Shown here one piece after another: positions 28,327 to 52,535 of a stretch of DNA of 64,000 nucleotides. The stretch is from Clostridia bacterium. Lineage in GTDB: Bacteria; Bacillota; Clostridia; Christensenellales; CAG-138. The notes below the pieces were generated by a model. The model ran no database searches, was not told the DNA's origin, and saw only the letters and a list, made by a program, of their open reading frames with translations. A program made the translations under genes and the position numbers. Numbering within the stretch: the first letter of the stretch is position 1; the number at the start of each line of letters is the position of its first letter. The stretch spans positions 115,376 through 179,375 of the forward strand of contig JAVBWI010000027.1 of assembly GCA_036677445.1 (NCBI GenBank), in the 5' to 3' direction.

Positions 28327-28354
28327 ATGATCCCTCCTGTGCGTGGATTGCTTA

Positions 28355-28384
28355 GAGTATGCACAGGTGAAACGATATTTAGAC
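28355..28384 (-). promoter_or_regulatory. sigmaF-like promoter of spoIIR
   Basis: GTCTA, 15 nt, GTGCATACTC; spoIIR is sigmaF-dependent in Bacillus and Clostridium. Confidence 0.5.
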
Positions 28385-28448
28385 ATGTTACACACAAAAA
28401 ACAGGGCCCGCTCTATGGCAGGCCCCGATTGATGCATCATATATTACA

Positions 28449-38686: not shown

Positions 38687-38703
38687 AGGCTCCCCTTCCT
38701 TTT

Positions 38704-38908
38704 GTGTCGACAAAGTGCCAAATGGCACTTTGTTGGGATTTACCGCGTAAGTTAGCGTTCGGTTTCCTGCATACGCAGGAAAGCTGTCGCGCTAACTTCG
38801 CTCTAAGGTGTCGTCATTTTGCACCGCACAGGTCGCTGCAAAATGACGGATTAAAAGCCTCCAGTTACGCACATTTTTATATTCTGAAACTGAGGCTTGT
38901 CGAATCTG
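38704..38908. mobile_element. MITE-like multi-hairpin repeat (family 1)
   Basis: Starts with hairpin GACAAAGTGCC..GGCACTTTGT; the core CGGTTTCCTGC.TACGCAGGAAAGCTGTCGCGC..GTCATTTTGCA..TGCAAAATGACGGATT.AAAGCCTCC is nearly identical to ~46900-47000. Confidence 0.7.
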
Positions 38909-38948
38909 GAATGTGAGAAATTTTGATTCCCCCCTGATAATGGATTTG

Positions 38949-39500
38949 TTAGAATTTCGCTTTGTGCAGCGGCGTATATTGCATGCGCCCGCCCACGTTC
39001 TCGCTTTCATACAGCACCAGCTGGTTGGCGGTGAACGCCGCGCCCTCCGCCGCGTCGCCGGCGATATTGGAAAGCGCCGGGGGCACCTCCTCTGCGTGCT
39101 GCACGTTTCGCGCAAGCGTGATATGCGGCGTCAGCCGCTTGTGGGAGCCTGTGAGCGGAAACCCGCGCGCACAAAGCGCGGCGGTAAGCGTTTCGTGCAG
39201 GCGGTACAGCTCGGCAAGCTCGCCCGAAAGGCTGATAAAGCCCGTACGCGCGTCGCCGCGCAAAAAGCTGCCGTAGCCCGAAAGCCGAAGCACAAACGGC
39301 CGGATGCCGCGCACGGCCTCTTCGCAGGCCGCCGCTGCACCCGAAAGATCCGAACTTTCGCCGATAAAGTGCAGCGTGATATGAAAGTTTTCCGGCGGCA
39401 CATACCTGCCGCCGGCGGAAGCCCCGCGCAGGCGCTGCTGCGCGCCGGCGAGCGCGCGGCGCACATCCGGCGGGAGCGGTATTGCAATAAATAAACGCAT
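38949..39500 (-). CDS. thpR: RNA 2',3'-cyclic phosphodiesterase (2H superfamily)
   Basis: MRLFIAI start; two HITL motifs; LVLYES..G..YTPL. Confidence 0.92.
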   Translation of the reverse strand: MRLFIAIPLPPDVRRALAGAQQRLRGASAGGRYVPPENFHITLHFIGESSDLSGAAAACEEAVRGIRPFVLRLSGYGSFLRGDARTGFISLSGELAELYRLHETLTAALCARGFPLTGSHKRLTPHITLARNVQHAEEVPPALSNIAGDAAEGAAFTANQLVLYESENVGGRMQYTPLHKAKF

Positions 39501-39673
39501 TGATTGAACCTCCAAAGAGTGGGTAACTATATTATAGCACAGCCCGCCGTACCGTTTTTGGTACTGCTTTGGTATTGCTGCAAGATTTTACTTGACAAAA
39601 TGGCCAAAACTGTGTTAAACAAACATGATGGGCAATATGTTCAAATGACAAACGGCAGAAAGGAGTGATAGCT

Positions 39674-39907
39674 GTGAAGATTAAGAACATCAACAACCCC
39701 AAGCGCTTTTTTGAGGTGCTCAACCAGTGCCACGGTCGCGTGGAGCTGATAACCTCCGAAGGCGACAGGCTCAACCTCAAGAGCACGCTGTGCCAGTACA
39801 TCGCGCTCACGCAGATGTTCAAGGATGCCCGCATCGACGATGTGGAGCTGATCGTCTCCGAGCCTGAGGATTTTGCCAAGCTCTTGGAGTTCCTGGTGCG
39901 CGGCTAA
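39674..39907 (+). CDS. Small conserved clostridial hypothetical protein (HPr-like)
   Basis: RBS AAAGGAG then GTG; MKIKNI...FFEVLNQC.GRVELITSEGDRLNLKS; terminator downstream. Confidence 0.8.
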   Translation: MKIKNINNPKRFFEVLNQCHGRVELITSEGDRLNLKSTLCQYIALTQMFKDARIDDVELIVSEPEDFAKLLEFLVRG

Positions 39908-39956
39908 ATCCCACACAAGCGTCGGCCCGTGCGCCGACATGATTTTTGCATGATTC

Positions 39957-39984
39957 CGGAGGGTTCTTTGCCCTCCGTTTTTTT
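39957..39984 (+). terminator. Intrinsic terminator
   Basis: CGGAGGG/CCCTCCG stem followed by TTTTTTT. Confidence 0.75.
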
Positions 39985-39989
39985 GTGTT

Positions 39990-40345
39990 GCGGACTTTTC
40001 AACAGTAAAAGGCTCCGGTTTTAATACGCCAACGGTACAACGGCCAGCAGCGCCGTTTTCCCCAGCGTCATGTCGAAGAGTTGCGCGGCAAACCTGCGTA
40101 TTCCCTTTCGATCCGCGCAAAAAATAGTATCCCGATGCGTCGGAGCAGACATGCGCAGCTAGAGGCTCGTATTCGAAATTATCATTGCGCTGCCCTATTG
40201 TCAGCAGGTTCTTACTATCCGGAAACGGCGCAGGATGCCCGCATCCACCCCCGCCCAGAATAAGGCATCCGCTAAAAAGCATGCAGAACAGCAGGAGGCA
40301 AGCAAGCTTCAGGAACTTGAAAACACGGGAACGGGGGTTATGCAT
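39990..40345 (-). pseudogene. Probable truncated lipoprotein gene
   Basis: RBS AAGGAG and ATG 40345, lipoprotein signal (FKFLKLACLLLFCMLFSGC). The frame then runs through a terminator and antisense across the 39674 gene, which suggests the real 3' end is lost. Confidence 0.45.
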
Positions 40346-40440
40346 AAAGAGTCTCTCCTTCTGGCGCTGTATATGAATGGCCTTGCAGAGGGACGGGCTG
40401 GATACATCACCAGTATATAGCACACCGTTTATGCGCACAA

Positions 40441-40483
40441 GAAAAAACGGAGCGGAAAGGGATTACCCCCGTGCCGCTCCGTT
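40441..40483 (-). terminator. Terminator closing the phage-like cluster
   Basis: AACGGAGCGG/CCGCTCCGTT stem with a T-tract on the minus strand. Confidence 0.7.
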
Positions 40484-40543
40484 CAAATACTCCGTCGAAC
40501 GTTTTAACCCCATGTTACACGCCCACATGAGAGAGCGCAGACG

Positions 40544-41062
40544 TTATGCGCCCGTCTCACCCCGGCGCAGTAGACGCTTCCGTTTGCGATGCTGGAGGGA
40601 TGCGCTCGCAAACAGGGAAATCAGTATACTCAACGCGGCCGAGGCGAGATAAGTGATGGGCAAGCCGAGAAGATAGAATCCATCCGCATCTCCCTCTGTC
40701 ACAAACAATCCGGAAATTTCCATTCCGGGAGATAACCCCATAATTAATAAATCAATGCCCATATACAGCCAGTACCCGGCAAACACAGCAGCGCCCAAAC
40801 AGACCCATTTGAGTATGACAATTCCCTCCGTATCAAATTTGTCATAAAGGGACGAAAGGCCGCGCTGTTTTCTTAAGCGGCCAGCATACCAAGAAAAGGC
40901 GAAGTATGCCGCAAGCAGACCGAATACGAGTAGCAGCATCAAAAGCGTATCAACTAGATTTCCTTTTCGGGAATTGGAAACAAAAGTCAAAACCAACTGA
41001 GGGATGGCCCAAAGGACTAGTATCACGAACAGTACGACGCGTGCTGCGGTAAGCGGTTTCAT
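40544..41062 (-). CDS. Four-TM membrane protein; candidate immunity protein
   Basis: RBS GGAGGAGG then ATG 41062; four hydrophobic segments; AT-richer than the host; directly downstream of the lysozyme-like effector gene. Confidence 0.7.
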   Translation of the reverse strand: MKPLTAARVVLFVILVLWAIPQLVLTFVSNSRKGNLVDTLLMLLLVFGLLAAYFAFSWYAGRLRKQRGLSSLYDKFDTEGIVILKWVCLGAAVFAGYWLYMGIDLLIMGLSPGMEISGLFVTEGDADGFYLLGLPITYLASAALSILISLFASASLQHRKRKRLLRRGETGA

Positions 41063-41126
41063 AGGCTCCCTCCTCCGAATTGGTAATTCCATATTAGCAT
41101 AATGGAAGGTTAAATGGGAGTCACTA

Positions 41127-42467
41127 TCAATCTAATAGTACATATTTCATGATCTCAGGCATATGCCTATTCATATCCTTTCCATAGGAGTATCCCGATG
41201 CCTCTTCATAGGAGGCGCCCGCCCCAATGTTATATCGGCTGGCGATCGTTGCAATCTGATCCAAAGAAAGCTTATTGGAGGGGATATCCGCAAAATCAAT
41301 TTTCTTCAGGTCTGCAAGATGCTTAGCAGAAATGAAGATGCTGAATTTTGGATTCTGGAGAGCTTTGATGATTTCTTTTTCCATAGTCGTATTTAGAATG
41401 TTTGGGGAAATCCCAAGTGTTTCGGCGGCAACTCTTATCTGCATACTAAGATCGCCAAATGATGTTTTATTAGGGTCCTTGGTAGCATCCCGCCACATAT
41501 CGCTCCACAATCCGCCAATTAATGGAAGGTTGGCAATTTCATCTGGAGTCTTGCCCCAATACTGTTCAGGAATCACTGGTGTTGTTCCCTTTCTAACAAA
41601 GTATGCAGCGGGATCGATCCATGGCGGATCGCCGCCCACTTCGGACCATGCCACACCGGCCAGGAGTTCCACAGGTATATCATATTTTTTCGCGGCGGCT
41701 TTAATAACGTCCCGATAGCCATATACCCACTGATTTTTAAACCCATATAAAAATTGGCTACCTTTATTATAAAGTTTCATATATTGCCACTCTATTGCCA
41801 ATAATGTATTCCAAGGCACATGAGAATTCGTCGGTATATCTTTGTAAGCTGCTTCAATTTCAGTAATCTCATCTTCTAAATGCTGCATGTTCTTGGTAAC
41901 AACTTCTGATTCTTCAAGTGAAGACAAGTTTGATTCGTTAATCTTCGGCTCTTCAAAATTCGATTGCTGACCATATGACGTAGGCACCGGCATAGTTCCC
42001 AATACTAGATCCTGCTCAATGTATGGATTGGCTGCTTCTTCTGTATAAGATCTTGGCATTATAGAAACCATATACTTTTCCTGCGCCTGCTTCTCCTTCG
42101 CGTTGCCATTTCCATTCACTACCATGGCCTGTACTTGCGCAGCTATGCCCGATAGGTCCGCGATAGATTTCTTGTTCTTTACACCGAGGTTTTCTAAATA
42201 CTCCGCATAAGCCACATAAGGATCGCCGCCGCTGAATGAAGCATCCGTCATGCTCAAAATCCCTTTATCTACCTTGTTATCGGATAAAATAAAATCCGGC
42301 ATGTCATTCGTTTGTAAAAGCCTATCTTTATCATAGGCGGTCTGCGTCTTAGGACCCCATATACCATCCACCTTAACGCCCAGCCGTTGCTGCTCTTTGC
42401 GCACATCGTCGGTGCTTTGTATGTACGCAGGAACCCGGGATCTATCCACTATAAATCTGCCCGCCAT
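41127..42467 (-). CDS. Candidate virion-cargo effector: N-terminal PG-binding-like tag and C-terminal lysozyme/lytic-transglycosylase-like domain
   Basis: RBS GGAGG then ATG 42467. N-terminus VRKEQQRLGVKVDGIWGPKTQTAY. C-terminus IKAAAKKYDIPVELLAGVAWSE (SLT-type catalytic Glu helix), TSFGDLSMQIR, LQNPKFSIFISAKHL, ASRYNIG. Confidence 0.7.
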   Translation of the reverse strand: MAGRFIVDRSRVPAYIQSTDDVRKEQQRLGVKVDGIWGPKTQTAYDKDRLLQTNDMPDFILSDNKVDKGILSMTDASFSGGDPYVAYAEYLENLGVKNKKSIADLSGIAAQVQAMVVNGNGNAKEKQAQEKYMVSIMPRSYTEEAANPYIEQDLVLGTMPVPTSYGQQSNFEEPKINESNLSSLEESEVVTKNMQHLEDEITEIEAAYKDIPTNSHVPWNTLLAIEWQYMKLYNKGSQFLYGFKNQWVYGYRDVIKAAAKKYDIPVELLAGVAWSEVGGDPPWIDPAAYFVRKGTTPVIPEQYWGKTPDEIANLPLIGGLWSDMWRDATKDPNKTSFGDLSMQIRVAAETLGISPNILNTTMEKEIIKALQNPKFSIFISAKHLADLKKIDFADIPSNKLSLDQIATIASRYNIGAGASYEEASGYSYGKDMNRHMPEIMKYVLLD

Positions 42468-42582
42468 TATAATTGCCCCCTCCATATCATTTGTGTGATG
42501 CATGGGTTCGCTCGCCATGTTTGGGGAACACCCTAACCTGACGCATTTATCCATTGCGCGTGCGGGGTCTTCTTCAAAGCCG

Positions 42583-42660
42583 CGGGTCATTGACAAACCC
42601 TGCGTTTTAACCCACAAAAATTCCGCTGACAAAGTCTTTTGGACTTTGTCAGCGGCTTGA
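42583..42660. mobile_element. Short MITE-like repeat (family 1b)
   Basis: Hairpin CCGCTGACAAAGTC..GACTTTGTCAGCGG, homologous to the ends at ~61889 and ~62877. Confidence 0.6.
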
Positions 42661-42691
42661 AAAAGTGGATGCATCCGCTTATTCAGCAGGT

Positions 42692-43543
42692 TTACGCGCC
42701 CGGATAGATCGCCTGTACCTGCAAATAGCCTGCTTCGCCCAGGCTGGCGATCAGCTCGTCGCGGTAGACGCGGTCCTGCGCCGTCGCGCCTTTATATATA
42801 TTGCCGCGCTGCGCGCCCGTAAGGCCCGCCAAAAACCGCATGCAGTTTTCCGGTGTGGTGATGCGCGCATATTCCTTGGCGCTGCCGCCGGATTTCTTTT
42901 GCGCCGCCTGCAGCTGCGCGATATAGTCCGCATACGCGCTCTGCGCGGTGGAAAACGCGAGCTGTCTCGTCTCTGCCTGCCGATTGGCGTTATACATCTG
43001 CACCTCCAGCGCGCGCGCCCGCTCCCGCTCTACGGCCTCCATCAAAAGCTGCGCCAGCGTGGCGGAATACTGCGCCTCCATCTGCGCGATGTCGTCCGCC
43101 TCCGCGTCCATCTGCCTGTCCTTCATGTCGGTCACATAGGTGCTTCTGCCCATGCCGCGCGCCCACGCGTCCGCGTCCAGCTCGGCGCGATTTTCCTCGG
43201 TCAACTCCTTGCGCCGTTCGATGGCCTGGTCCACGCCGGGGCGCAGGCTGCTTGCAAGCTGTGCCCGCAGGGACGCCGTGGATTGCGGCGTGTAAGAAAG
43301 GGCGGGCGTCTGCAGCAGCGACTGTATGCCCTGCATGAATGCGCCCAGGCCGCCCGTCAACTGGCTGACTGCCGTAGCGGGCCCCTGCTGCGCCTGATAC
43401 GCCGCCTGTGATTTCGGGCCCCATACGCCGTCCACCTGAAGGCTCGCGCCCTGCGCGTTGAGCTGCCGCTGCAGGCGACGGACCCCCTCACCGTCGGTCA
43501 CGCCCACAGGCGGCGTGTAACCCGGGATAAAATAGCCTGTCAT
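42692..43543 (-). CDS. Putative internal virion/ejection-like protein with N-terminal PG-binding-like domain
   Basis: VRRLQRQLNAQGASLQVDGVWGPKSQAAY; Ala/Gln-rich helical body with an AWARGMGRS motif reminiscent of podovirus ejection proteins; lies after the nozzle gene. Confidence 0.6.
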   Translation of the reverse strand: MTGYFIPGYTPPVGVTDGEGVRRLQRQLNAQGASLQVDGVWGPKSQAAYQAQQGPATAVSQLTGGLGAFMQGIQSLLQTPALSYTPQSTASLRAQLASSLRPGVDQAIERRKELTEENRAELDADAWARGMGRSTYVTDMKDRQMDAEADDIAQMEAQYSATLAQLLMEAVERERARALEVQMYNANRQAETRQLAFSTAQSAYADYIAQLQAAQKKSGGSAKEYARITTPENCMRFLAGLTGAQRGNIYKGATAQDRVYRDELIASLGEAGYLQVQAIYPGA

Positions 43544-43554
43544 ACTTTCCTCCT

Positions 43555-44208
43555 TTACCCGCCGTAGCCTGCAAGCAGCTCGTCAGCATACCGGTCAAGC
43601 TCTTCTTCAAGATACGCTTCCCACGTTTTCTCTTCATCGATCTCGGCCTCGATAGCGCCCGGCACATCGTCGTCCTCGTCCGACCTACGCCGGAAGGCCG
43701 CGCCTTCAAAGCCCGGCACGCGGGAGCCGGGCTTTAGGCCCGTCACGCTGCTGGGCGTGTAGCCAAGCATATTTCCATACGAATCAAACGCCTTCGCATA
43801 CTTGGCAAACTGCCAGCCGTTGCCGATATCGTAATACATGCCGTTGGGGCTGATCTTCGCGCCCATCGGGTAATAGAACCCGTCCTCGCGCAGCAGCGCG
43901 CCGTAATCCGTGTAAGCGCGCCCGTCGCTGCCGCGGTATACGTTGCCGGTATATCCGCTGATATGGGTGTATACGGGCGGCGCGGCGGATGCGCCCGAAC
44001 CCCTGCCGGTTGTGCCGCCGGACGTACCGCCGCCCTGCATGCCGGTATACGCCTTGTACGGGTCCGCGCCCGCGCCGTAAAGCGCGTCCAGCGCCGCCTG
44101 GGATTTATTCCCCCACGCACCGTCCATTTTGACGCCCAGCGTTTGCTGCAGCGCGCGCACCTCCGTGGTGGAAAGCCCCGGTACGCGGTAATCGCTTCTT
44201 ACTGCCAT
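43555..44208 (-). CDS. Putative virion-associated protein with N-terminal PG-binding-like domain, Gly-rich linker and acidic tail
   Basis: VRALQQTLGVKMDGAWGNKSQAAL; RBS AAGGAGG; inside the cluster. Confidence 0.6.
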   Translation of the reverse strand: MAVRSDYRVPGLSTTEVRALQQTLGVKMDGAWGNKSQAALDALYGAGADPYKAYTGMQGGGTSGGTTGRGSGASAAPPVYTHISGYTGNVYRGSDGRAYTDYGALLREDGFYYPMGAKISPNGMYYDIGNGWQFAKYAKAFDSYGNMLGYTPSSVTGLKPGSRVPGFEGAAFRRRSDEDDDVPGAIEAEIDEEKTWEAYLEEELDRYADELLAGYGG

Positions 44209-44290
44209 TTGGTATCCTCCTTATTTGGGATGGCCTGCAGCCACTTCTCCGGTTCCAAGGCCCCTTTGCAGCGGAACCTGATAGCACAGG

Positions 44291-44476
44291 CTATCCATTC
44301 TGCAGTTGTTCCTCCATCTCCAGCAGCTTCTGATAGAGTATGGAAAAGTTCTGGTTCAGGTTGTTTTCATTCTGGGCGACCTGCGTGTCGTATTCCTCGG
44401 GGCTTGCCTCCTTATCCATGCGCCGGAGCAGCAGTACGGGGAAAAGCGCCTGTACGCCGGTGGGAATGTACGCCAT
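44291..44476 (-). CDS. Small coiled-coil phage structural-type protein (61 aa)
   Basis: RBS AAGGAG then ATG 44476; NENNLNQNFSILYQKLLEMEEQL helix; follows the nozzle gene. Confidence 0.6.
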   Translation of the reverse strand: MAYIPTGVQALFPVLLLRRMDKEASPEEYDTQVAQNENNLNQNFSILYQKLLEMEEQLQNG

Positions 44477-44515
44477 GCTGCATTCTCCTTTCTTGTTAAA
44501 TGACATCCGGCAATG

Positions 44516-45997
44516 CTAAAGCGCGCGCAGACGGTGCTCGAATACCATTTGTACGCCGCCCAGTATGCGGAAGCGGGAGCCCGCCTCGTTGGAAAAGCGG
44601 AAGGCGAATGTGCGCCCCTCGTTGCGAAGCGGTATTTCCAGCACGTCTTCCTCCCGTTCCGGCATCAGGCAGCGGTAATTATGGAGGTTCCGGCCGATGC
44701 GGGCGTCCAGCAGCAGCACCGCGCCCTCTCCGGCGCTCTCCCCCGCGCCGCGTATATACATCTCCTGCAGGCACTTGATGCCGGGCTTGCTGCCCAAATC
44801 CGTCAGCGGCGTGTGCCAGTAGGCGTCGATGGGCGCGCCGTCGTAATCCGGCCCCTCGTCAAAGCGGTATACGGTGCGCGCTTCGTTGATAAGGTAGAGC
44901 GTACCGTCGTGCGCGCAGATGTCGGATACCGTAAAGCCGCGCCGCAGCATATAAGCTTGCCGCGCCGTATCGTAAACGATCAGCGCGTTGTCCGCCGTAC
45001 GGGCGGCGCCCGCACCGCTTTGGTCGCGGCTTTGTTCATATGCGGTGAAAATGAGCTTTTCGCCCAGCTTGGCGGCGCGGCAGTTGGTGAAGGACGCCCC
45101 TTCGAGGAAGCCGCGTATGCGCCGCGCGCTGCGGCTTCTAAGAGCCGTCTGCCCGTCGAAGTAATACAGCCCCGCGCCGGTCATCCAGTAGGGCACGTCG
45201 CCGTAGAGTACCCGCGCGGTGTTCTGCATCTGCTCCACCTCGGCATACACGCGGTACACGCGGAAATTGCCCGGCCTGTCGCCCAGCAGCCGGTAAACGG
45301 AGCGGCGCTTGAATATCAAAAGCTGGTTGGAAAGCGCGCACAGCCCCGTAATGGGGTCGCCTGAGGTATCGCCCACCTCCACATGCCCGCCGCCAGTGTT
45401 TTCGCTCGCCTCGTCCACTGCCCAGCTTTCGATCGTCCGCTCGTCCCCCGGGGCCTGGCTCCAGTACAGTCGGCAGGGGTGCGCAGGGTCGCCCGCGGAA
45501 AACAGGCGGCCGTAATGCATGGCAAGGAAGTTGACGGAAATGTTGGAAAGCTTCGCTTCGCTGCCGAACGCCTGCATGGCGTTTATGCCGTCCCATTTGA
45601 CGATTGCGTGTTCGCCGCAGGCAAGAAGCAGGTAGTCGGCGCTGCCGATCTGCGTCTCGCAGGCGTCAAAGCGCAGGCCCTTCACCGTTTCGGGGTAAGA
45701 GAACAGCAGCGTCCACGCGGGGGCCTCGTCGGTGATGACATACGCGTATACGTCGTTGCCCGCGATGGCGAGAAAGCGCTCGCTCACCAGCCCCTGCCAG
45801 TGCAGGAGCTTCCGTATGGGCTTTTCCCCCGGCACCGCCGCCGCGATATGCTTCACATACCCGCGCGCCACGGCAAGGCTGCCGTCGGCGGTATCCATAT
45901 TGCAGGCGTCGGGGCTGCTGCCCGGTTCTATCGCGCCCTCCTGCGCGCTTTGGTCGATGCCCAGGAATGCGGGTATGCGGTACTCGGCCACGGCCAT
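44516..45997 (-). CDS. Podovirus-type tail nozzle/stabilization protein (P22 gp10 / T7 gp12-like beta-propeller)
   Basis: ~493 aa and beta-rich; N-terminal FLGIDQS...SPDACNMD..DGSL..ARGY; YGRLF..GD...P.RLYWS; GDPITGL...NQLLIFKRRSVYRL.GD. Position after the adaptor gene fits. Confidence 0.72.
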   Translation of the reverse strand: MAVAEYRIPAFLGIDQSAQEGAIEPGSSPDACNMDTADGSLAVARGYVKHIAAAVPGEKPIRKLLHWQGLVSERFLAIAGNDVYAYVITDEAPAWTLLFSYPETVKGLRFDACETQIGSADYLLLACGEHAIVKWDGINAMQAFGSEAKLSNISVNFLAMHYGRLFSAGDPAHPCRLYWSQAPGDERTIESWAVDEASENTGGGHVEVGDTSGDPITGLCALSNQLLIFKRRSVYRLLGDRPGNFRVYRVYAEVEQMQNTARVLYGDVPYWMTGAGLYYFDGQTALRSRSARRIRGFLEGASFTNCRAAKLGEKLIFTAYEQSRDQSGAGAARTADNALIVYDTARQAYMLRRGFTVSDICAHDGTLYLINEARTVYRFDEGPDYDGAPIDAYWHTPLTDLGSKPGIKCLQEMYIRGAGESAGEGAVLLLDARIGRNLHNYRCLMPEREEDVLEIPLRNEGRTFAFRFSNEAGSRFRILGGVQMVFEHRLRAL

Positions 45998-46001
45998 ATT
46001 C

Positions 46002-46544
46002 TCACCACCTGTTCTCGAACCGGTAGCGGTCCGGCTCGCCCAAAGCGGCGCGCAGGCTGCGCTTGCCCGCGTTGTACAGCTCGAAATACACGTTTGCCCC
46101 GCGCTGCATGGCAGGGTCGGCGCTCGCGCGCTCGCGCGCCACCACATAGGTTACGATCATGCCGTGGCAGAAGTCGGGCAGCTCCGGCACGTCGGTGGGG
46201 GAGCTCATATCATCGGGCAGGTAGCGGTAGTGAACGAGCACCGCGCCGTCGTCGCACAGCACGCGCACGCGCGTGCTGGAAGGCCCGGTGATAAAGGGCA
46301 CGCGCGCCATGCCGCGGGATACGGAAAGCACCTTGGCGCAGCAGCGCGGCAGCTCCGCGATATCCGCAATACCGCCGGAAACATTGAGCGGGTCGCTGCG
46401 GCGAAGCTGCAGAACGGTCGCAAGGTCCGTTACGGCTTCGTTGGCGTAACGGGTCAGCTTGTCACGCCAGGTATCCACCGTCTGGCTGTCGTGGCCGCGG
46501 TCAAGCTGCGCCAAAGCGGAGACGATGATATCGTTGAGCGTCAT
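46002..46544 (-). CDS. Head-tail adaptor (P22 gp4 / tail tubular A-like)
   Basis: MTLNDII..AL..L.........L.RYANEA..DL..; V.YRYLP.DM....DVPELPD..H..IVTYV; synteny after the capsid gene. Confidence 0.7.
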   Translation of the reverse strand: MTLNDIIVSALAQLDRGHDSQTVDTWRDKLTRYANEAVTDLATVLQLRRSDPLNVSGGIADIAELPRCCAKVLSVSRGMARVPFITGPSSTRVRVLCDDGAVLVHYRYLPDDMSSPTDVPELPDFCHGMIVTYVVARERASADPAMQRGANVYFELYNAGKRSLRAALGEPDRYRFENRW

Positions 46545-46549
46545 GCCCC

Positions 46550-46825
46550 TCACCCGACCTTTTTACCGCGCCCGCGGTAGGCGCGCACCTTCTCTTCGCT
46601 TTCCACACGCACGCGGGCGCTCTGGGCGATGAGCGCGGCGAGGCTTTGCGGAAGCGCCACCTCCACGCCGGTCTTGATGCGGAAGAAGTGGCCGTTGATG
46701 CCGCCCTCCCAGTAGCCGCCCAGGTTATCCGGCGATATGGTAACGCGGACTTTGGGCTCGGATTGCAGCGCCGCGCCGGTATCCGAGGCGAGGCGGTCGA
46801 TCTGCTGTTCGGTTAAGTAATTCAT
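46550..46825 (-). CDS. Small phage head-associated hypothetical protein
   Basis: 91 aa; PKVRVTI...GGINGHFFRIKTGVEVALPQSLA, a pattern I associate with proteins encoded right after N4-gp56-type capsids; RBS AGAGGAG. Confidence 0.65.
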   Translation of the reverse strand: MNYLTEQQIDRLASDTGAALQSEPKVRVTISPDNLGGYWEGGINGHFFRIKTGVEVALPQSLAALIAQSARVRVESEEKVRAYRGRGKKVG

Positions 46826-46844
46826 ATATTTTCTCCTCTCATGT

Positions 46845-47230
46845 TTTCGAGAAAGTGCCTTGCGGCACTTTCTCGAGGTTCACCGTGCAAGTCGTCGCTC
46901 GGTTTCCTGCTTACGCAGGAAAGCTGTCGCGCCAACTTGCGCTTCAAGGTGTCATTTTGCACCGTACATGCCGCTGCAAAATGACGGATTGAAAGCCTCC
47001 GGGGGCAGGCCCCCGAAGCCCCTGGGGGGTATTTACTCAACGCAGCCCTGCATTCCCCTATACGGCTTCCAATCGTCAAAACGGATGACATGCGCATCCG
47101 TTTTGACACCTTGCACGGCCGCCGCCCGGGGAATGCCGCAGCATTCCTAGGCGGCCGTGTGGAATCCGTCCCAATGCGCTGATGCGCATTGGGACGACCT
47201 CAGAAAAATGGCCAACGCCATTTTTCTGAC
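46845..47230. mobile_element. Composite MITE-like repeat (family 1) inside the phage-like cluster
   Basis: End hairpins TCGAGAAAGTGCC..GGCACTTTCTCGA and TCAGAAAAATGG..CCATTTTTCTGA; core shared with ~38760-38865. Confidence 0.7.
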
Positions 47231-48465
47231 TATGCGCTTACACTGTGCTCGATGCGTACCACCCACAGCGGGTTGAGTATGGTGGCGGTGTAGGCCGCGA
47301 CCTTTGCGCCCACCGTACCGCGCTGGTCAAGCGGATCGGCCGCGCCGGCGCTGCCGGGGCGTTTGACGATGGTCTGCAGCGTGCCGGAGCCCATCACGTC
47401 CACCACGCCGTAGGAATCAGCGCCGAACACCAGCGTGGCGTGGATATCCAGCCCCGCTTTGGTGGTGTCGTCCAGAGCGCCCGCGTCCTCGCTGTACACC
47501 AGCGTGTCCGCGGCAATGGCGGAGGCGACGACAACGGAAAGCGTAATGGTATTGGCCGCCTGGCTGACGCCGGCGACAGCGTATTCCGTACTGCCGATCC
47601 TGATCTTCGCGCCCTCCTGCGAAAGGTAAGCGCGGGCGGCGTCGGAAATGCCGTCCACCACCACGTCCGCGCTGCCCGCGGCGTGGCTTGCGACGGCGGT
47701 CAGCACGCTCTGGCGGTACACCTTTGTTTCGGTGCTTTCCACAAACACCACGCCGAACAGGCGGCCGATCTCGCCGGAATAGATCTGCTCCGCGTTAGAG
47801 TATTTGGAGACGTCCTGCCACAGGCTGTCGCTCTGCAGGTCATAGGTGGCCTCCGGCGAGCAGATGCAGATAAAGTGCGGCTTGCGCGCCTCGCCCTTTT
47901 CGTTGGCGGTGAAATGGCGCGCCTTGGCCTTTTTGAGCGTCCGTACGGCCTTTCGCACCTCGGAAACGCTCAGCTTGTCGTTCACGGTGACCTGCAGGCG
48001 GGACGTACGGCCGCCCGCATACTGTACGTTGGTGCCGGCGCACATGGCGTCGCGGGTGATCCACTCCACTACGGTGCCCAACTGCTCGCCCAAGAGCTCC
48101 GCGCTGTCGGATACCACCTCGTCGTAGGCGGTCGCTTCCAGAACATCCGAGATCTCCACATACGCGCCGTACTGCGCGACCTCGGCCTCCACCCTGCTTT
48201 GGGAGAGAGACTGCCCTTCCGGCGTTACGCCTTCCATGAGCGGGGCGGCGGCCAGTTCCGGCGAAAACAGGTCGTAGCGCCGGAACTCCACGCGCTTGCC
48301 GTTGTTGCGCGGTATGGAGCGCTTCTGGCCGAATTTGGCGAATACCAGCTTGGTGCGCGCGGTCTCCAGCAGCTTTTTGTCGTAGAAGTTTTTGTTGAGG
48401 TACGTCTGGCTGCCGCCGCCCGGAAGGGCCGCGGCGGTGTTGATGGTGGTTTGTGTATTGGACAT
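47230..48465 (-). CDS. Major capsid protein, N4-gp56 family (HK97 fold)
   Basis: FYDKKLLE.A...LVF.KFGQKRSIPRNNGK.VEFRRY, PLMEGVTP.G, QYGAYVEISD, GEIGRLFGVVFVES, FGADSYG, DPLDQRGTVGAK; RBS AAGGAGG. Confidence 0.9.
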   Translation of the reverse strand: MSNTQTTINTAAALPGGGSQTYLNKNFYDKKLLETARTKLVFAKFGQKRSIPRNNGKRVEFRRYDLFSPELAAAPLMEGVTPEGQSLSQSRVEAEVAQYGAYVEISDVLEATAYDEVVSDSAELLGEQLGTVVEWITRDAMCAGTNVQYAGGRTSRLQVTVNDKLSVSEVRKAVRTLKKAKARHFTANEKGEARKPHFICICSPEATYDLQSDSLWQDVSKYSNAEQIYSGEIGRLFGVVFVESTETKVYRQSVLTAVASHAAGSADVVVDGISDAARAYLSQEGAKIRIGSTEYAVAGVSQAANTITLSVVVASAIAADTLVYSEDAGALDDTTKAGLDIHATLVFGADSYGVVDVMGSGTLQTIVKRPGSAGAADPLDQRGTVGAKVAAYTATILNPLWVVRIEHSVSA

Positions 48466-48483
48466 ATGCTTCCTCCTTATGTA

Positions 48484-48725
48484 TTATCAAAAAAGCGGCA
48501 TCCGCCGCTTTTTTGAGTTTCCACATGCAGGTTCGCTCACCGCTCACCTGCGACCTTTGTTTGTCGCCGTAGGCGACATCGGTGGTGCCCGAAGGGTGCC
48601 TGCAAGGTGTCATTTCTGACGCACCTGTCGTCAGAAATGACGGATTTTATGGTTTCTCCGATATTTTACGCAAGTGGGGCGGCGGAGCGCCCCGCTACGT
48701 GGGCCTTTGATGGGTTCTCAGGCGC
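48484..48725. mobile_element. MITE-like repeat (family 1) between the scaffold and capsid genes
   Basis: TCAAAAAAGCGG..CCGCTTTTTTGAGTTTC end (compare ~59443) and AAGGTGTCATTT..AAATGACGGATT module (compare ~46946 and ~38806). Confidence 0.65.
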
Positions 48726-48743
48726 GTTACGCTTCCACATTCT

Positions 48744-49265
48744 TTACAGCTTGACCTTTACGCCCCGGCGGGCCTTTTCGCGGTATTCGTGCTCCAGCTT
48801 CGCGAACTCCTCCGGCGACATGGAAAGGTAGTCCCGCGCAGGCGCCGCGGCGGTGTCCGCGCGGGCGGCGCGGGGCAGCCCTTCGCGCGCGCGAAGGCGG
48901 GTGACGATGGCCTGCATGGCGTTGCGCTCCGCCTCGGCGGCGCGCTTTTCCGCCTGGTATACGCGTACGGCGGCGTAGGCGGGCATCTCGATTACCAGCC
49001 GCACAAAAGCCGGGTCCTGTACGGCGGCTTCCAGGTCGAAATCCTCGGGCAGCAGGTTCTGCTGCAGCAGTGCGTCGATCTCGCGCTTGAGGCTCTCCGG
49101 GTCAAGGGCGCGGGCATTGCCCGCGGGGGGCGGCGCAGGCTGCGCGGGCATGCGCCCGGGCATTGCGCCCGCGGGCATACCGTCCGCGGGCGCGGCGGGC
49201 GCCAGGCCTGCCTGCGGCGTATATTCGAATGCGCTCTCGGGGAAACGGGTAAATTTCTCTTTCAT
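48744..49265 (-). CDS. Putative capsid scaffolding protein
   Basis: Lies between portal and capsid; Pro/Ala-rich N-terminus, helical core and C-terminal DYLSMSPEEFAKL..RRG.KVKL tail typical of scaffolds; RBS AAGGAGG. Confidence 0.65.
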   Translation of the reverse strand: MKEKFTRFPESAFEYTPQAGLAPAAPADGMPAGAMPGRMPAQPAPPPAGNARALDPESLKREIDALLQQNLLPEDFDLEAAVQDPAFVRLVIEMPAYAAVRVYQAEKRAAEAERNAMQAIVTRLRAREGLPRAARADTAAAPARDYLSMSPEEFAKLEHEYREKARRGVKVKL

Positions 49266-49301
49266 AAGCTCCTCCTTTTTCTTTGTGGGTCGTATGTGGT
49301 T

Positions 49302-49313
49302 GAACGGTGGTTC
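49302..49313. promoter_or_regulatory. Possible LexA (Cheo) box between portal and scaffold
   Basis: GAAC-GGTG-GTTC in a 56-bp intergenic gap. Confidence 0.35.
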
Positions 49314-49321
49314 TTAACGGG

Positions 49322-51019
49322 TTAGTTGGCCGCCCGCTTTGCGCGCGCGCCGCCCCGCGGGGCCATCAGCCGTTTTACGCGCGCCGCTATGCCGCCTCCG
49401 CCGCCGGTTTCCCCCGCGGGCCCATTGGGGGCGGCCGGGCCGCTCTGCGGCGGGGCGGCCGCAGGCTGCTCCGCCTCATCTGCGCGCTTGGCCTGTCTTA
49501 GCACCTGCTCCTTGCCGTCGAAGTGCATCAGCTCTACCGCCTGGTCGGGGCGGAGTACGCCAAGCTGTATCATCTGCAGCACCAGCTCGTTCTGGCTGAT
49601 GACACTCCAGCGGTTCTCCTTCTGCACCTTGATGGATATGGAAAACTCGACGGGCAGGCTGCGTCCGTCGGGCAGCGCGCGGGTGAGCATGCTTCCGTCG
49701 AAAACGCGCCGCTGCACCTGCCCGTCCATGGCGACGGAAACGACGCGCGGCAAGAGGTTAAACTCGCGTTCCACCTCGATTTCCATGCGCACGGCGTCGC
49801 GATAGGCCTCGTGCATCTGCCGGGAGGCCATGCGCGCGCGTTTGCTGCTCATTTCCTGCAGCGCCGCGATGGCGGAGGCCGCCGTGATGCCGCCCGCCGT
49901 CCCCCCGCGGGAAAAGTCGTTCGCTCCGCTTTCTTCCTTAATGGATTCGAGCATGCCTCGGATGTACTGCATGATGTACGAGGGCAGCGGCGGCGTGGCG
50001 AACCAGCTCACGCCGTTGAGGCTTTCGCCCGTGTGCACCTCCTTCGCCCAGTCGCGCAGGTCATCCGCGTCAAAGCCGCTCGCCTCGGTGATGAGCAGCT
50101 TGTTGTGCGAGGCCATCAGCGCGTTTTTGAGCACGATCTGGTCCAGCTTGTCGGCGTACTGCTGCTGCGCCGCAAACATGTCCACAAGGCCCAGCCCCAG
50201 CGGGCTTCCTTTGCGCGTGAATAGCGGCGTCACGATAAACGGGTACTGCCCGTTGGAAAAATAGCCTTGCGGCTTCAGCTCCCGGCTGTCCAACAGCACC
50301 TGCCCGCCCGCAAGCTGCGCCATGTGCACGCGGCAGCCGCCGGTTTTTTCGTCGTACTCGCGCCACCAGTATTCCAGCAGGAGCGCGGTCTTGGTGCGGT
50401 CGGCGGTGAGGAGTGAATCCTCCATCACGGATTGCTGCGCATACCCGTCCGAATCCCCGTCATAAGCGGGGAAGCGGGCGGACAGCCACTCGCGCGTGCG
50501 CACCGCGAACTTGAACACCGCGCGTCCGTCCTGAATATCTGTGCACAGCGGGTCGAAGAGTACGCCGCGATTGTCCGCGTGGCGAATGAACGCGCCGCCC
50601 AATCCGTTGTTGAGCGCGGGGTCATAGCCTACCTCCTGCACCATGTAGCCGCCCACGAGCAGGTCGTGCACCAGACGCCGGTATTCGCGCTCGTAGCAGG
50701 CGGCGTCGTGGTTCTGGCGGATCACCGCCTCCAGCACACGGGCGGCCGCCGTATCCTCCGGCGTTTCGGGCGAGATCACCGCCTCCGGCAGCGAATCCAT
50801 CAGGTCCGCCGCGATGTTCTCCACCGTGCTCTGTATTACGGGGGTCACGGGGCGCGGCTCGTTGGGGTCGCCTTGCGGAATGTCGTGCCAATGGTCGCCG
50901 CAGTACATGCGCTCGGCATGCTCCAGCCGCCGCCACTCGCCCGCGTAGGCGGCGCGGAATTCCTCGAACAGCGCGTACGCGCGGGCGCGCAGCGCATCCC
51001 GGCCTTCTTTTTGGTTCAT
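49322..51019 (-). CDS. Phage portal protein (P22-like podovirus type)
   Basis: 565 aa; W......RMYCGDHW......PRPVTPVIQSTVE, P.TPED...ARVL, LFDP, YPFI..P, N..SRG....G.TAASAI.ALQE; first gene of the cluster. Confidence 0.85.
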   Translation of the reverse strand: MNQKEGRDALRARAYALFEEFRAAYAGEWRRLEHAERMYCGDHWHDIPQGDPNEPRPVTPVIQSTVENIAADLMDSLPEAVISPETPEDTAAARVLEAVIRQNHDAACYEREYRRLVHDLLVGGYMVQEVGYDPALNNGLGGAFIRHADNRGVLFDPLCTDIQDGRAVFKFAVRTREWLSARFPAYDGDSDGYAQQSVMEDSLLTADRTKTALLLEYWWREYDEKTGGCRVHMAQLAGGQVLLDSRELKPQGYFSNGQYPFIVTPLFTRKGSPLGLGLVDMFAAQQQYADKLDQIVLKNALMASHNKLLITEASGFDADDLRDWAKEVHTGESLNGVSWFATPPLPSYIMQYIRGMLESIKEESGANDFSRGGTAGGITAASAIAALQEMSSKRARMASRQMHEAYRDAVRMEIEVEREFNLLPRVVSVAMDGQVQRRVFDGSMLTRALPDGRSLPVEFSISIKVQKENRWSVISQNELVLQMIQLGVLRPDQAVELMHFDGKEQVLRQAKRADEAEQPAAAPPQSGPAAPNGPAGETGGGGGIAARVKRLMAPRGGARAKRAAN

Positions 51020-51049
51020 GTGCCAACTCCTTTCTGTTTTGCGCGCAGC

Positions 51050-51080
51050 AAAAAAGCCCGCGCAAGTGCGTGAGCTTTTT
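51050..51080. terminator. Terminator-like hairpin just upstream of the portal gene
   Basis: AAAAAAGCCCGCGCAAGTGCGTGAGCTTTTT, with T-tracts on both strands. Confidence 0.6.
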
Positions 51081-51086
51081 ATAATG

Positions 51087-51138
51087 CGAACAAATGTTTT
51101 TATGTTAGCAGTATAGCACAGATATCCGAACGGTACAG
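51087..51138 (-). promoter_or_regulatory. Extended -10 promoter with a downstream LexA (Cheo) box
   Basis: Minus strand TG-c-TATACT (51115-51110); CGAAC-AAAT-GTTTT at 51087-51100 matches the Firmicutes SOS box GAAC-N4-GTTY. Confidence 0.6.
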
Positions 51139-51194
51139 GTGAGAAGCTTTCTTAGAAGGCATGGCGCAGGAATGCACCGCCAAACGCCCTGGCG

Positions 51195-52535
51195 CTAATG
51201 CATTACAAGCTCCCACGGGCAAACGAATTCTTTGCCGTCCAGGTAGAAAAGCGGCGAATCCTGTGAAAAATGCAGCGCCAGCCTGTAAGCAAGCAGCGCC
51301 TGCCTGCGCCTGTGCGCGGCCTTGTTCGCTGCGCGGTCGCCGTATTTGTCGTCGCCCAGCACGGGGTGGCCGGTATGCGAGAGATGCGCCCTGATCTGGT
51401 GCGTGCGGCCGGTGTACAGCCGCACTTCCAATAAGCTCTGTTCGCCGTCCGTTTCCAGTACGCGATAGCCGGTTTTGATGAGCAGCGCGCCGGGCGAGGG
51501 GGAATCGAACACATACAGCCTGCCCGCTTCCGCATCCTTTTTCGCCCAGGCTTCCAATATAGCCTCCTGCCGCTGCATGCGGCCCAGAACGATGCAGCGG
51601 TAGTACTTCTCGATACGCTGCTCCTTTATCGCCGCGGCCAGATCCCGCTCCGCCTCCGGCGTGCGCGCGAAAAGCAGCAGGCCTTCGGTGTTCGCGTCCA
51701 GCCGGTGTACGGGGTACAGCGCGCCAAAGTATGGTTCCAGCCTTGCCTGCAGGGAGTCTTTTCCGCCGTCCGCCGCTGTAACCTCAACGCCCGCGCGCTT
51801 TGCCACGACGAGCAGGTTTTCATCCGCATATACGACGTCACTGGCATCCTGCACAGGCAGCGCTGTGATTTGTGTGGAAAAAGGCGCGAACGCGCCGCCA
51901 TGCGGCAGGGAAAAGAACTGCATGCGCTCCTTTTTCGTGGGATGCTCGAATGCGAGCGAATATGCCCACAGCGCAATCTGTCCGCGCGCGGGCGAAGGAT
52001 GGTAACGCTGGTCAAAACGGATGGGCCAGCCGTGCGCGGCCAGCTGCGCGCGGATCTGGTGCTTGCGGCCGGTCAGCAGCGCAATGTCAAGCAGCGCATA
52101 CGCCCCTTCGCGCGCGAGAACCTGATAGCGCAGTACGGCCTGCCTGGCTTCCGGCGCGGGGTCGGGGGATACCTCCACCCGCAGCGCGCCTTCTGTATCG
52201 CGGATATAGTCGGTAAGCTCGCCGGATGGGGGGATATCCCCCTCCACTACTGCGGCATAGCGCTTTTGTGCCTGTCGAAGAGCAAACTGCGCAGAAAGCC
52301 GCGCCGCCGCCTTGCTGGTGCGCGCGAACACCATTGCGCCGCCCACGGGTCTATCCAGCCGGTGGCACAGGCCAAGGTATACCGCGCCCGGCTTGTTATA
52401 TTTTTCTTTGATATAGGCTTTGAGTATGGAAAGAAGATCCTCGTCGCCCGAAGAATCCGCCTGTACCGGCGTGTTCGCGGGCTTTTCCACAACCAGGATA
52501 TGATTGTCCTCGTACAAAATGGGGGGTACGCTCAC
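51195..52535 (-). CDS. RluA-family pseudouridine synthase with two tandem catalytic domains
   Basis: Domain 1: VVEKP, HRLDRPVGG, TGRKHQIR. Domain 2: VVAKRAG, HRLDANTEG, TGRTHQIR, HPVLGDDKYG. Confidence 0.9.
   Translation of the reverse strand: MSVPPILYEDNHILVVEKPANTPVQADSSGDEDLLSILKAYIKEKYNKPGAVYLGLCHRLDRPVGGAMVFARTSKAAARLSAQFALRQAQKRYAAVVEGDIPPSGELTDYIRDTEGALRVEVSPDPAPEARQAVLRYQVLAREGAYALLDIALLTGRKHQIRAQLAAHGWPIRFDQRYHPSPARGQIALWAYSLAFEHPTKKERMQFFSLPHGGAFAPFSTQITALPVQDASDVVYADENLLVVAKRAGVEVTAADGGKDSLQARLEPYFGALYPVHRLDANTEGLLLFARTPEAERDLAAAIKEQRIEKYYRCIVLGRMQRQEAILEAWAKKDAEAGRLYVFDSPSPGALLIKTGYRVLETDGEQSLLEVRLYTGRTHQIRAHLSHTGHPVLGDDKYGDRAANKAAHRRRQALLAYRLALHFSQDSPLFYLDGKEFVCPWELVMH

Follow-up and report, generated by a model that had tools for sequence, protein, structure and literature searches.

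To our knowledge, gene transfer agents (GTAs) were known, before the GTA of Faecalibacterium prausnitzii (FpGTA) was reported, almost only from the Alphaproteobacteria and from a few isolated cases. The subject of this work is a 64,000-nucleotide stretch of a Christensenellales-type genome (G000, an assembly of 3.40 Mb in 27 contigs; contig C27, positions 115376 to 179375), which is called the window throughout, and within it a block of phage-type head and tail genes; other contigs of G000 carry C numbers, and genomes and loci of relatives carry G and L labels. We read the window, with a probability of roughly 0.65, as holding one locus, that for the head and the tail hub, of a particle system of the GTA kind which derives from a podovirus, has been domesticated and is split over three chromosomal loci. 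Both the domestication and the arrangement in three loci have good support, and GTA function, which would comprise packaging of host DNA, release and transfer, is the best-supported mechanism, as suggested by analogy and by the intact terminase.

The closest described system is FpGTA (Borodovich et al., Nat Commun 2026, PMC12946183; preprint 10.1101/2024.11.15.623857), termed by its authors the first podovirus-like GTA-like element. According to the parts of that paper on which we draw, its operon I comprises ten open reading frames (ORFs) and encodes TerS, TerL, portal, scaffold, major capsid protein and short-tail-type proteins, a separate operon II of 5.5 kb encodes baseplate, fibre, receptor-binding protein, holin and endolysin, and the particles are capsids of ~40 nm with ~9 kb of host DNA (PMC12946183). 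The same parts report GTA-like packaging in several Clostridia families, with metagenome-assembled genomes of Christensenellaceae accounting for 3 of 25 events, and name a cluster only in Faecalibacterium (PMC12946183). The original prediction made for this DNA had stated that characterised domesticated phage machines all derive from long-tailed phages, which is contradicted by FpGTA, a podovirus-like element presented in the 2024 preprint and the 2026 paper (PMC12946183). A podovirus-like GTA is already in print, and the system described here is filed as a variant of the GTA kind, in which the three loci, the orphan terminase pair, the other host order and the LexA-type boxes are new.

Compared from the text of the FpGTA paper, the contiguous form of the block found in relatives of G000 has the ten ORFs of operon I in the same order, and operon II has its counterpart in the fibre/lysis locus on contig C17 (Table 1). 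As far as the description of FpGTA extends, both systems are devoid of replication genes, reside in a Gram-positive anaerobe and are near-ubiquitous in their host group. In contrast to FpGTA, the equivalent of operon I is cut in G000, with the terminase pair standing alone beside spo0A and the system occupying three loci; it belongs, moreover, to a Christensenellales-type host of sediment and sludge, is accompanied by LexA-type boxes and is known from its genes alone. When homologues of the capsid protein were searched, close relatives were among the matches listed and none was named Faecalibacterium, while an Atlas search with the same protein returned 'N4-gp56 family' clusters only. A literature search found no paper joining N4-gp56 with Faecalibacterium; for GTAs together with Christensenellales the only relevant match was PMC12946183, and a search for GTA, podovirus and Bacillota added nothing relevant among the matches listed.

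In RcGTA, CcGTA and BaGTA of the Alphaproteobacteria, as presented in the sections of the literature used here, the head and packaging genes are vertically inherited under purifying selection, the genes lie at several loci with fibre and lysis functions apart from the head cluster, and replication and integration genes are lacking (PMC5026251, PMC9662315, PMC9632790). The present system resembles this type, to the extent that those sections describe it, in its vertical inheritance, multi-locus organization, purifying selection and lack of replication and integration genes. It differs from it in architecture, RcGTA-type agents being siphovirus-like with a tape measure and tail tube, whereas a P22/SU10-type portal-adaptor-nozzle arrangement is encoded here, in another phylum and by unrelated proteins. 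PBSX of Bacillus subtilis is an SOS-inducible defective particle of a Gram-positive host that packages host DNA and is freed by lysis. It differs from the system described here in its contractile tail, its single locus and its nature as a killer particle, and is likened to it through the TerL of G000, which weakly matches the PBSX-family terminase model TIGR01547 (E 1.5e-11, under the model's cut-off).

Among cultured viruses, podophages that infect Paenibacillus and Bacillus come closest. The capsid protein is 34-35% identical to those of Paenibacillus phages API480 and SV21, the portal is 25% identical to that of Bacillus phage PK1 (Pony and PK1 being the Bacillus podophages likened to the system), and the nozzle fold is common to P22, SU10, Pa223, VP1 and T7. 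Even the nearest of 50,697 phage records remain distant, with capsid identities below 46% and portal identities of at most 31%. Podophages also differ in being complete viruses of 40-65 kb with replication and lysis modules, in contrast to the ~15 kb of scattered structural, packaging and lysis genes found here. Two unverified contigs from human faecal viromes, deposited as 'Bacteriophage sp.' (MT836150.1 and MT835662.1, loci L172 and L173; GC contents 0.43 and 0.48) carry TerL, portal and capsid genes, the capsids being 38-45% identical to the one described here; instead of phage genomes, these contigs may represent bacterial chromosome fragments that related particles had packaged.

Eleven ORFs, all on the minus strand, occupy positions 40544-51019 of the window (Table 1), and their families and folds agree with the gene content and order originally predicted. 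Host genes border the block as had been proposed, a LigT/ThpR-type gene and addB on one side and a double pseudouridine synthase and an S-adenosylmethionine methyltransferase on the other. Neither a terminase nor an integrase was found in the window, and the three tyrosine-integrase matches of the genome lie on C6, C13 and C19 rather than on C27, in agreement with the predicted lack of an integrase. The prediction that no terminase is present stands for the window and fails for the genome, in which an orphan TerS/TerL pair was found on C17.

Table 1. Features of the three loci of the particle system and of the adjoining DNA in G000. Positions are those of the window unless a contig is named; E values are given without units.
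Feature	Position	Strand	Basis or remark
Locus Ia: TerS and TerL	G000:C17:74487-76567		beside spo0A
Locus II: fibre/lysis operon	G000:C17:91559-95797		directly after mnmE
LexA-type box, one mismatch	51088..51099		~70 nt upstream of portal, right after TGnTATACT -10-like element
Portal protein, P22/SU10 type	49322..51019	-	PF16510 P22_portal E 2e-17; PF23899 SU10_portal 3e-13; phrog_156 5.6e-41
Perfect GAAC-N4-GTTC box	49302..49313		56-nt gap between portal and scaffold; among the genome's 41 perfect sites
Scaffold-position protein	48744..49265	-	named from position and composition
Intergenic gap with dispersed repeat, missing in one strain	48466..48743		blastn and contig of run X12
Major capsid protein, N4-gp56 family	47230..48465	-	TIGR04387 8.7e-78; phrog_1357 2.1e-69
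Intergenic gap of dispersed host repeats (MITE/REP-like)	46826..47229		blastn and depth spike in 4 runs
g4, small conserved protein	46550..46825	-	homologue in 65/80 loci, invariably between capsid and adaptor
Head-to-tail adaptor, SU10 type	46002..46553	-	PF24175 SU10_adaptor E 8.9e-10
Tail nozzle / tail hub protein	44516..45997	-	AlphaFold model and Foldseek
g7, small conserved protein	44291..44506	-	homologue in 58/80 loci, after nozzle
g8, clade-specific protein	43555..44208	-	N-terminal peptidoglycan-binding-like motif, by eye
g9, last gene of conserved block	42692..43543	-	conserved helical core
g10, accessory gene: peptidoglycan-binding motif and lysozyme/SLT-like C-terminal domain	41127..42674	-	weak family and fold matches
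g11, accessory small membrane protein, basic C-terminus	40544..41092	-	four hydrophobic segments, Kyte-Doolittle
Strain-variable segment: g11 in full, g10 for the most part	40482..42366		metagenome contigs

The terminase absent from the window is encoded elsewhere in the genome. A genome-wide search with Terminase_6N recovered a single gene, TerL at C17:74487-75944 (Terminase_6N 1.4e-11, phrog_979 4.4e-52), and the gene immediately upstream encodes a small terminase of the P22-gp3 type, TerS (C17:76001-76567, GP3_package 5.2e-12). This pair, locus Ia, is bordered by a PNPOx-like gene and spo0A on one side and by host genes including an alanyl-tRNA-synthetase-like gene on the other. Locus II was traced through the genes that adjoin the block in relatives, and encodes a BppU_N-type fibre/baseplate protein of 380 amino acids (aa), a glycine-rich Gly_rich_2 protein, a 108-aa protein, a CBM5/12 protein and an NlpC/P60 hydrolase, together with a 128-aa protein with an N-terminal transmembrane segment and a 69-aa protein in which a hydrophobic C-terminal stretch is visible by eye and falls under the Kyte-Doolittle threshold. 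Loci Ia and II lie ~15-16 kb apart on C17 and the head block, locus Ib, lies on C27; their coding DNA (2.1, 8.3 and 4.2 kb for loci Ia, Ib and II, respectively) thus sits in three separate places, and the system is therefore unable to move itself. The original prediction had suggested a whole-genome search for orphan terminase, holin and tailspike genes; the TerS/TerL pair and the fibre/lysis operon were found on C17.

The two other large terminases of the genome are of a different type (TerL_ATPase; C23:8211-8729 and C6:284408-284854) and belong to ordinary prophages. The holin family PF05105 is matched in G000 only by a prophage homologue, on C15, of the genes of relatives. That prophage end (C15:7034-16061, equivalent to 3034-12061 of L168) is of siphovirus type, and contains a large serine recombinase, a Sipho_Gp37 minor tail protein, a head/virion protein, a Phage_holin_4_1 holin and an endolysin with NlpC/P60 and PG_binding domains, its holin and lysin being the nearest G000 homologues of those that accompany the block in other genera. 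These two genes were considered as parts of the system and rejected, sitting as they do in a siphovirus-type prophage with a serine recombinase. Beside TerS, and divergent, are two paralogous ORFs of 373 and 410 aa (C17:76891-78012 and 78372-79604) with no Pfam or PHROG match, which also adjoin TerS in G003 and G007 (41-45% identity) and may be host genes or else parts or regulators of the system.

To follow the genes beyond G000, the 80 closest loci in named genome records were compared, all from different species and all Christensenellales-type or Clostridia; the family comparison covered 24 other genera and the class-wide sample 399 genomes. The portal, which is the sole match to this protein in the genome, has a homologue in 52 of the 80 loci. 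In 77 of them a homologue of the scaffold-position protein, an ORF with no Pfam or PHROG match, stands between portal and capsid, and the capsid itself is found in all 80. Searched against PDB sequences, the capsid gave marginal matches only. Its residues ~253-337 (window ~47455-47709) form an inserted domain that is missing in several other lineages, in which the capsid match falls into two pieces (1-252 and 337-410); the insertion may be a decoration or stabilising domain. The adaptor recurs in 73 loci, and g4 and g7 lack any family match.

The nozzle, with homologues in 72 of the loci, starts at 45997 and not at 46147, which reduces a 543-codon frame to 493 aa. A search of PDB sequences yielded nothing useful for it. 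Its AlphaFold model (18 sequences; pLDDT 90.2, pTM 0.89) was compared by Foldseek, as the original prediction had proposed, and podophage nozzle and hub chains came out on top: the best PDB match was the Pa223 tail chain 9nwi_Y (E 3.7e-22, TM 0.81), followed by VP1 8zkk_O, P22 gp10 8eap_D, SU10 7z4b and T7 gp12 7boy. A podovirus-type short tail, defined by the SU10 adaptor and the nozzle fold, is hence encoded, and no tape-measure, tube or sheath family was found among the genes of all three loci in Pfam and/or PHROGs scans.

Towards the end of the block, g8 has no Pfam, PHROG or NCBIfam match and its homologues are confined to the 4 closest of the 80 loci plus G003 and G007, while g9 is found in 70. 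In the alignment of g9 the core ELDADA..RGMG.S is invariant and the N-terminal peptidoglycan-binding motif occurs in only part of the rows; the protein matches phrog_2649 (8.8e-6, residues 18-53), and its profile found no sequence match in the PDB. Three proteins tagged with peptidoglycan-binding motifs had been predicted, of which g9 and g10 retain sub-threshold Pfam matches to PG_binding_1 (E 0.0057 and 0.01, respectively), the tag of g8 being visible by eye only.

The block is contiguous in G004, G006, G008, G018, G019 and G023, in the order TerS-TerL-portal-scaffold-capsid-g4-adaptor-nozzle-g7-g9, with the orthologues of the orphan TerS and TerL directly upstream of the portal. TerL was recovered in 42 and TerS in 37 of the 80 loci, and the full set from TerS through g9 in 37, contig ends explaining some of the misses and splits others. 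Cuts separate TerL from portal in G000, G003, G007, G014 and L069-L072 and portal from scaffold in G002, G022 and ~25 of the 80 loci, G005, G016 and G021 have the block rearranged, and in all of these cases the genes are still open. G003 and G007 share with G000 both the terminase split and its LytR-Spo0A-PNPOx-TerL-TerS context. Overall, the frames of the nine conserved genes, of TerS/TerL and of the fibre gene are intact both in G000 and in the majority of ~100 loci of different species, the nearest of which come from records named Feifaniaceae, Christensenellaceae bacterium, Candidatus Pelethousia and Candidatus Aphodomorpha.

At the family level, the capsid occurs in 21 and TerL in 22 of the 24 other genera, with full-length capsid matches of 40-86% identity and one locus per genome. 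The BppU_N fibre gene, with a conserved N-terminus and a variable tip, was found in 20 of the 24 genera and in none of the 16 other families of the order. It directly follows g9 in G002, G005, G021 and G022, and is joined by an NlpC/P60+PG_binding hydrolase and a Phage_holin_4_1 gene in L112, L114, L131, L125 and G023. In the class-wide sample the capsid family is present in 62 of the 399 genomes and is nearly all-or-none per family (14/14, 7/7 and 12/13 versus 0/15, 0/15 and 0/14); the class-level matches that were fetched have GC contents of 0.40-0.57 and mostly other layouts. In family f36, with the capsid family in 12 of 13 sampled genomes, G318 (C1:1908550-1910022) has only capsid and g4 homologues and G058 (C34:4304-5521) only the capsid, no portal or TerL being found up to ~12-18 kb on either side; these loci could represent a more scattered version of the system or another use of the capsid.

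Host genes flank the block in relatives as well: G004 and G006 have SpoIIR and YpeB upstream, the downstream neighbour in G004, G006, G008 and G019 is a DAGK/YegS-like gene, and no integrase, replication or repressor gene stands beside any locus read. Sporulation genes recur in these neighbourhoods: in G004 and G006 SpoIIR is found directly upstream of ypeB and of the TerS end of the block in its contiguous form, in G000 12 kb separate it from the head block (window 27724-28440, minus strand), and the terminase pair of G000, G003 and G007 is beside spo0A. Conservation across relatives, as proposed originally, was thus observed for the gene set, which is kept family-wide, and not for the chromosomal site.

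Ratios of nonsynonymous to synonymous substitution (dN/dS), estimated roughly by the Nei-Gojobori method against four close genera, are 0.11-0.20 for portal (0.15-0.19), capsid, adaptor, nozzle and TerL; those of scaffold (0.27-0.39), TerS, g8 and g9 are 0.21-0.43, compared with 0.16-0.21 for the host genes PNPOx and LytR and 0.05-0.09 for Spo0A. The core genes therefore behave like PNPOx and LytR, with no sign of the relaxed selection that the original prediction had named as evidence to the contrary; dS is similar in all genes (0.8-1.5) and saturated against L072. Identity to G000 correlates with that of the host marker MgsA both for the capsid (rho 0.70) and for TerL (rho 0.75), and capsid and TerL identities correlate with each other (rho 0.87), also where the two genes are on different contigs; of 40 relatives, 19 entered each comparison. 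Excluded were genomes that did not give both a capsid and a TerL match, and likewise those whose best MgsA match, at 43-46%, was read as a paralogue (G001, G009, G010, G018, G025 and G035). Tracking of the host is thereby seen within the limits of one marker, n=19 and non-independent genomes.

The three loci of G000 also share a sequence element upstream. Few k-mers are common to the three upstream regions, and a LexA-type box (GAAC-N4-GTTC) was first spotted by eye and then tested. G000 contains 41 perfect sites and 1016 with at most one mismatch (~0.3 per kb). The 12-mer upstream of lexA recurs just once in the genome, 17 nt before the start of TerS, and the box is at the same place in G003 (perfect) and G007 (one mismatch), the surrounding DNA having diverged. 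A perfect box heads the fibre/lysis locus of G000, and the box upstream of the portal is kept in place in four of six close relatives (G003, L069, L070 and L071; not G007 or L072). SOS control through these putative LexA operators is a hypothesis at the level of the clade, and not a general rule, because the TerS box occurs in 1 of 37 contiguous-type loci and recA has no box. GC-rich hairpins followed by T-runs were noted at 51020-51090, between the putative promoter/LexA box and the portal start, and at 48494-48506, just before the capsid start (both minus strand); such terminator-like leaders could permit control by anti-termination.

The pair g10/g11 at the downstream end of the block is of a different nature. 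Its GC content is 0.43-0.51 (g10, 0.43), no homologue of g11 was found in the 80 loci and g10 gave there only matches of its peptidoglycan-binding motif, the pair occurring in none of the ~100 related loci; in G003, G007 and L069-L072 host genes directly follow g9. Strains also differ in it: contigs of run X5, from another study, and part of the X4 population pass from position 40481 to 42367 by way of 58 other letters, a junction that strips g11 and ~410 codons of g10 and keeps the first ~100 codons of g10. The region ~40.9-42.4 kb is uncovered, with covered flanks, in runs X5, X7 and X12, uncovered parts being counted only where one contig bridges the gap, and both genes are either present or absent together among the strains seen in metagenome contigs. 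Given that the pair is missing from relatives and from other strains, the conserved system works without it, and g10/g11 is outside the conserved machine. The original prediction had made an effector/immunity-like pair the end of the domesticated cluster, a view not compatible with its absence from the related loci, its low GC content and its absence from conspecific strains.

As to the function of the pair, g10 looks like a lysozyme/SLT-type wall hydrolase, although this is weakly supported. Only 8 homologues were found among 5.8 billion clusters, 4 of them with a weak SLT Pfam match (best E 0.003), and a language-model search of the Atlas led to SLT+PG_binding_1 clusters. The g10 alignment shows an invariant E followed by S.Q and YN.G blocks, which we take to resemble SLT motifs. 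PDB sequences gave nothing useful, and the model (pLDDT 51) has weak fold matches to the Tse3 muramidase (E 0.06), MltF, MltE and g-type lysozyme (E 0.06-1.7). For g11 no Pfam, PHROG or NCBIfam match was found. Most likely g10 is an additional wall hydrolase that has g11 as its partner in the membrane, the two acting in lysis or as effector and immunity protein. The earlier claim that the cluster contains no holin or endolysin is doubtful, because g10 resembles a wall hydrolase and g11 a small membrane protein.

Several attributes of GTAs are thus found together. The genes are phage-derived structural and packaging genes in the chromosome, and scans of the ORFs of all three loci against Pfam and/or PHROGs found no replication, integration or lysogeny module; being dispersed over three loci, the element cannot transfer all of its own genes; and it is inherited vertically under purifying selection, as judged from one host marker and at dS near saturation. 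A host-maintained short-tailed particle module, as originally proposed, is in keeping with the family-wide conservation, the purifying selection and the host-gene flanks, and the alternative offered at the time, a GTA with its terminase and lysis genes located elsewhere, is supported by the orphan TerS/TerL and the fibre/lysis operon, together with the same conservation, selection and flanks. In such a system a signal, here probably DNA damage acting via LexA, would cause a fraction of the cells to express locus Ia (TerS/TerL), locus Ib (portal, scaffold, capsid, g4, adaptor, nozzle, g7, g8 and g9) and locus II (fibre/lysis). Procapsids would assemble on the portal with the scaffold and be filled by TerS/TerL, in a headful manner, with fragments of the host's DNA. 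Closure and arming of the particle would then fall to adaptor, nozzle, g7/g9 and fibres, and lysis of the cell to the hydrolase and membrane proteins, after which the particles would deliver DNA to related cells.

A number of observations weigh against this reading or restrict it. What is in hand is a particle system of GTA layout seemingly defined by its gene content, no RNA run being listed with this stretch, and it is not assigned as a member of FpGTA because FpGTA was compared by description only. The human-gut virome contigs closest to the capsid have GC contents of 0.43-0.48, unlike Faecalibacterium, whose GC content is ~57%. Three of the 24 genera are without a capsid match, and loss of the system does occur, since the single-contig genome G011 retains only TerL homologues (C1:1940688-1941917 and 442690-443976; 59% and 55% identity), one of them with an internal TGA, and has no capsid or fibre match. 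The host flanks differ between G000, G003/L070/L071, G007/L069 and L072, so that the head block has no fixed chromosomal site; since they differ between sub-clades, the block has moved with genome rearrangement and no site is universal. The LexA-type box is absent before TerS in 36 of the 37 contiguous-type loci, before the fibre gene in G007 and within 400 nt of recA in G000. Finally, the dN/dS ratios are rough because dS is near saturation, and the p-values of the correlations overstate the case because the genomes are related, not independent, and MgsA is the sole marker.

The main rival is a PBSX-like killer or defective particle, short-tailed, filled with DNA and released by lysis, which would kill or mark competitors and deliver no usable DNA. 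All of the genomic evidence for a GTA fits it equally well, a killing role is left open for FpGTA itself in the sections of that paper used here (PMC12946183), and the peptidoglycan-binding tags on g8, g9 and g10 and the variable hydrolase that ends the block would suit it. Pfam, PHROGs and NCBIfam scans of the conserved genes found no toxin-like or pore-forming family, which speaks against such a role, and the fibre with its conserved N-terminus and variable tip fits adsorption but does not separate killing from transfer; on the whole we consider a killer particle unlikely. Much further removed is a DNA-free, capsid-based machine for protein delivery with g10 and g11 as cargo effector and immunity protein, the possibility originally put forward beside a GTA. 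The best, weak fold match of g10 is to Tse3, a type VI muramidase effector, and g10/g11 behave as a swappable cassette behind the first ~100 codons of g10. Polymorphic toxin loci are likewise swappable cassettes behind a kept N-terminal part. This reading is not supported, because TerS/TerL are intact and conserved, under purifying selection and diverge in step with the capsid, and the pair, as described above, is absent from related loci and from other strains; it is the least probable of the explanations weighed here.

The small size of the phage-derived module and the restriction of its main locus to packaging and head genes also call to mind capsid-forming satellites (resembling capsid-forming phage-inducible chromosomal islands, cf-PICIs), which make their own heads and take other functions from a helper phage, and G000 does harbour other prophages (the TerL_ATPase prophages on C23 and C6 and the siphovirus-type tail, holin, lysin and serine recombinase on C15). 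Such an element is nevertheless very unlikely, for no integrase, replication or regulation module lies beside the loci read, the genes are spread over three loci, adaptor, nozzle and fibre are encoded by the system itself, and it is present family-wide with identity that tracks the host. Decaying prophage remnants without present function appear just as improbable: the pieces are scattered, no self-sufficient phage genome is present and G011 has been left with its TerL copies, but the conserved genes, TerS/TerL and the fibre gene are open in G000 and most loci, the core dN/dS values are those of host genes, and the same gene set has been kept through at least three independent kinds of split.

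The remaining features concern the DNA around the genes. The structural genes have GC contents of 0.61-0.67 against contig means of 0.50-0.59; the host-like GC content once predicted is therefore not that of the contigs at large, but it is matched by the neighbouring addAB, which is equally high. Host repeats resembling miniature inverted-repeat transposable elements (MITEs) or repetitive extragenic palindromes (REPs) had been placed in the intergenic gaps, and genome-wide blastn agrees: the capsid-g4 gap has 109 matches, the best with 82-92% identity across 130-165 nt, and the scaffold-capsid gap has 23. Contig depth over 46766-47252 spikes ~7-fold in four metagenome runs, and in a contig of run X12 position 48478 is joined to 48743 with 7 other letters between, the gap repeat being missing in that strain. 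Among the listed strain differences in metagenome contigs, indels fall in intergenic DNA. The sequence is contained in metagenome runs of sediment and sludge, which stem from at least four studies besides the probable source study, and no virome run of this organism is listed. There is no tRNA in the window, Rfam at the gathering threshold gave 0 matches in 38000-53000, and a scan for sigma-70 promoters and terminators showed no excess over shuffled sequences. Between thpR and g11, an ORF at 39641-40438 (minus strand) without family match has a lipoprotein-like signal by eye (a hydrophobic stretch with Cys at its end); it was not found beside the block in relatives, and, being covered in contigs of other strains, does not belong to the strain-variable segment.

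For the domesticated GTA-kind system proposed here, the three loci are concrete candidate genes behind GTA-like packaging in a second order, and the N4-gp56-type capsid, the SU10-type adaptor, the nozzle, g9 and the BppU_N fibre may serve as markers for surveys. In annotation, orphan terminases and terminase-less head clusters such as these should be regarded as halves of one system and not as debris. The layouts, one block in some genera and two or three pieces in others, present domestication in progress, and the LexA-type boxes common to the split loci offer a testable handle on its regulation. A wider picture, which we regard as tentative and on balance doubtful, would be that of an ancient podovirus-derived GTA in the whole Christensenellales-type family and several other Clostridia families, repeatedly broken into two or three loci, controlled by LexA in this clade and, upon DNA damage, exporting host DNA by altruistic lysis; exchangeable wall-hydrolase cassettes (g10/g11), carried on the particle or arming it, would in addition have their landing pad at the end of the head locus. 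If this were true, short-tailed GTAs would offer Gram-positive anaerobes living in guts, sludge and sediments a widespread route of gene flow linked to SOS, and would not be a curiosity of Faecalibacterium.

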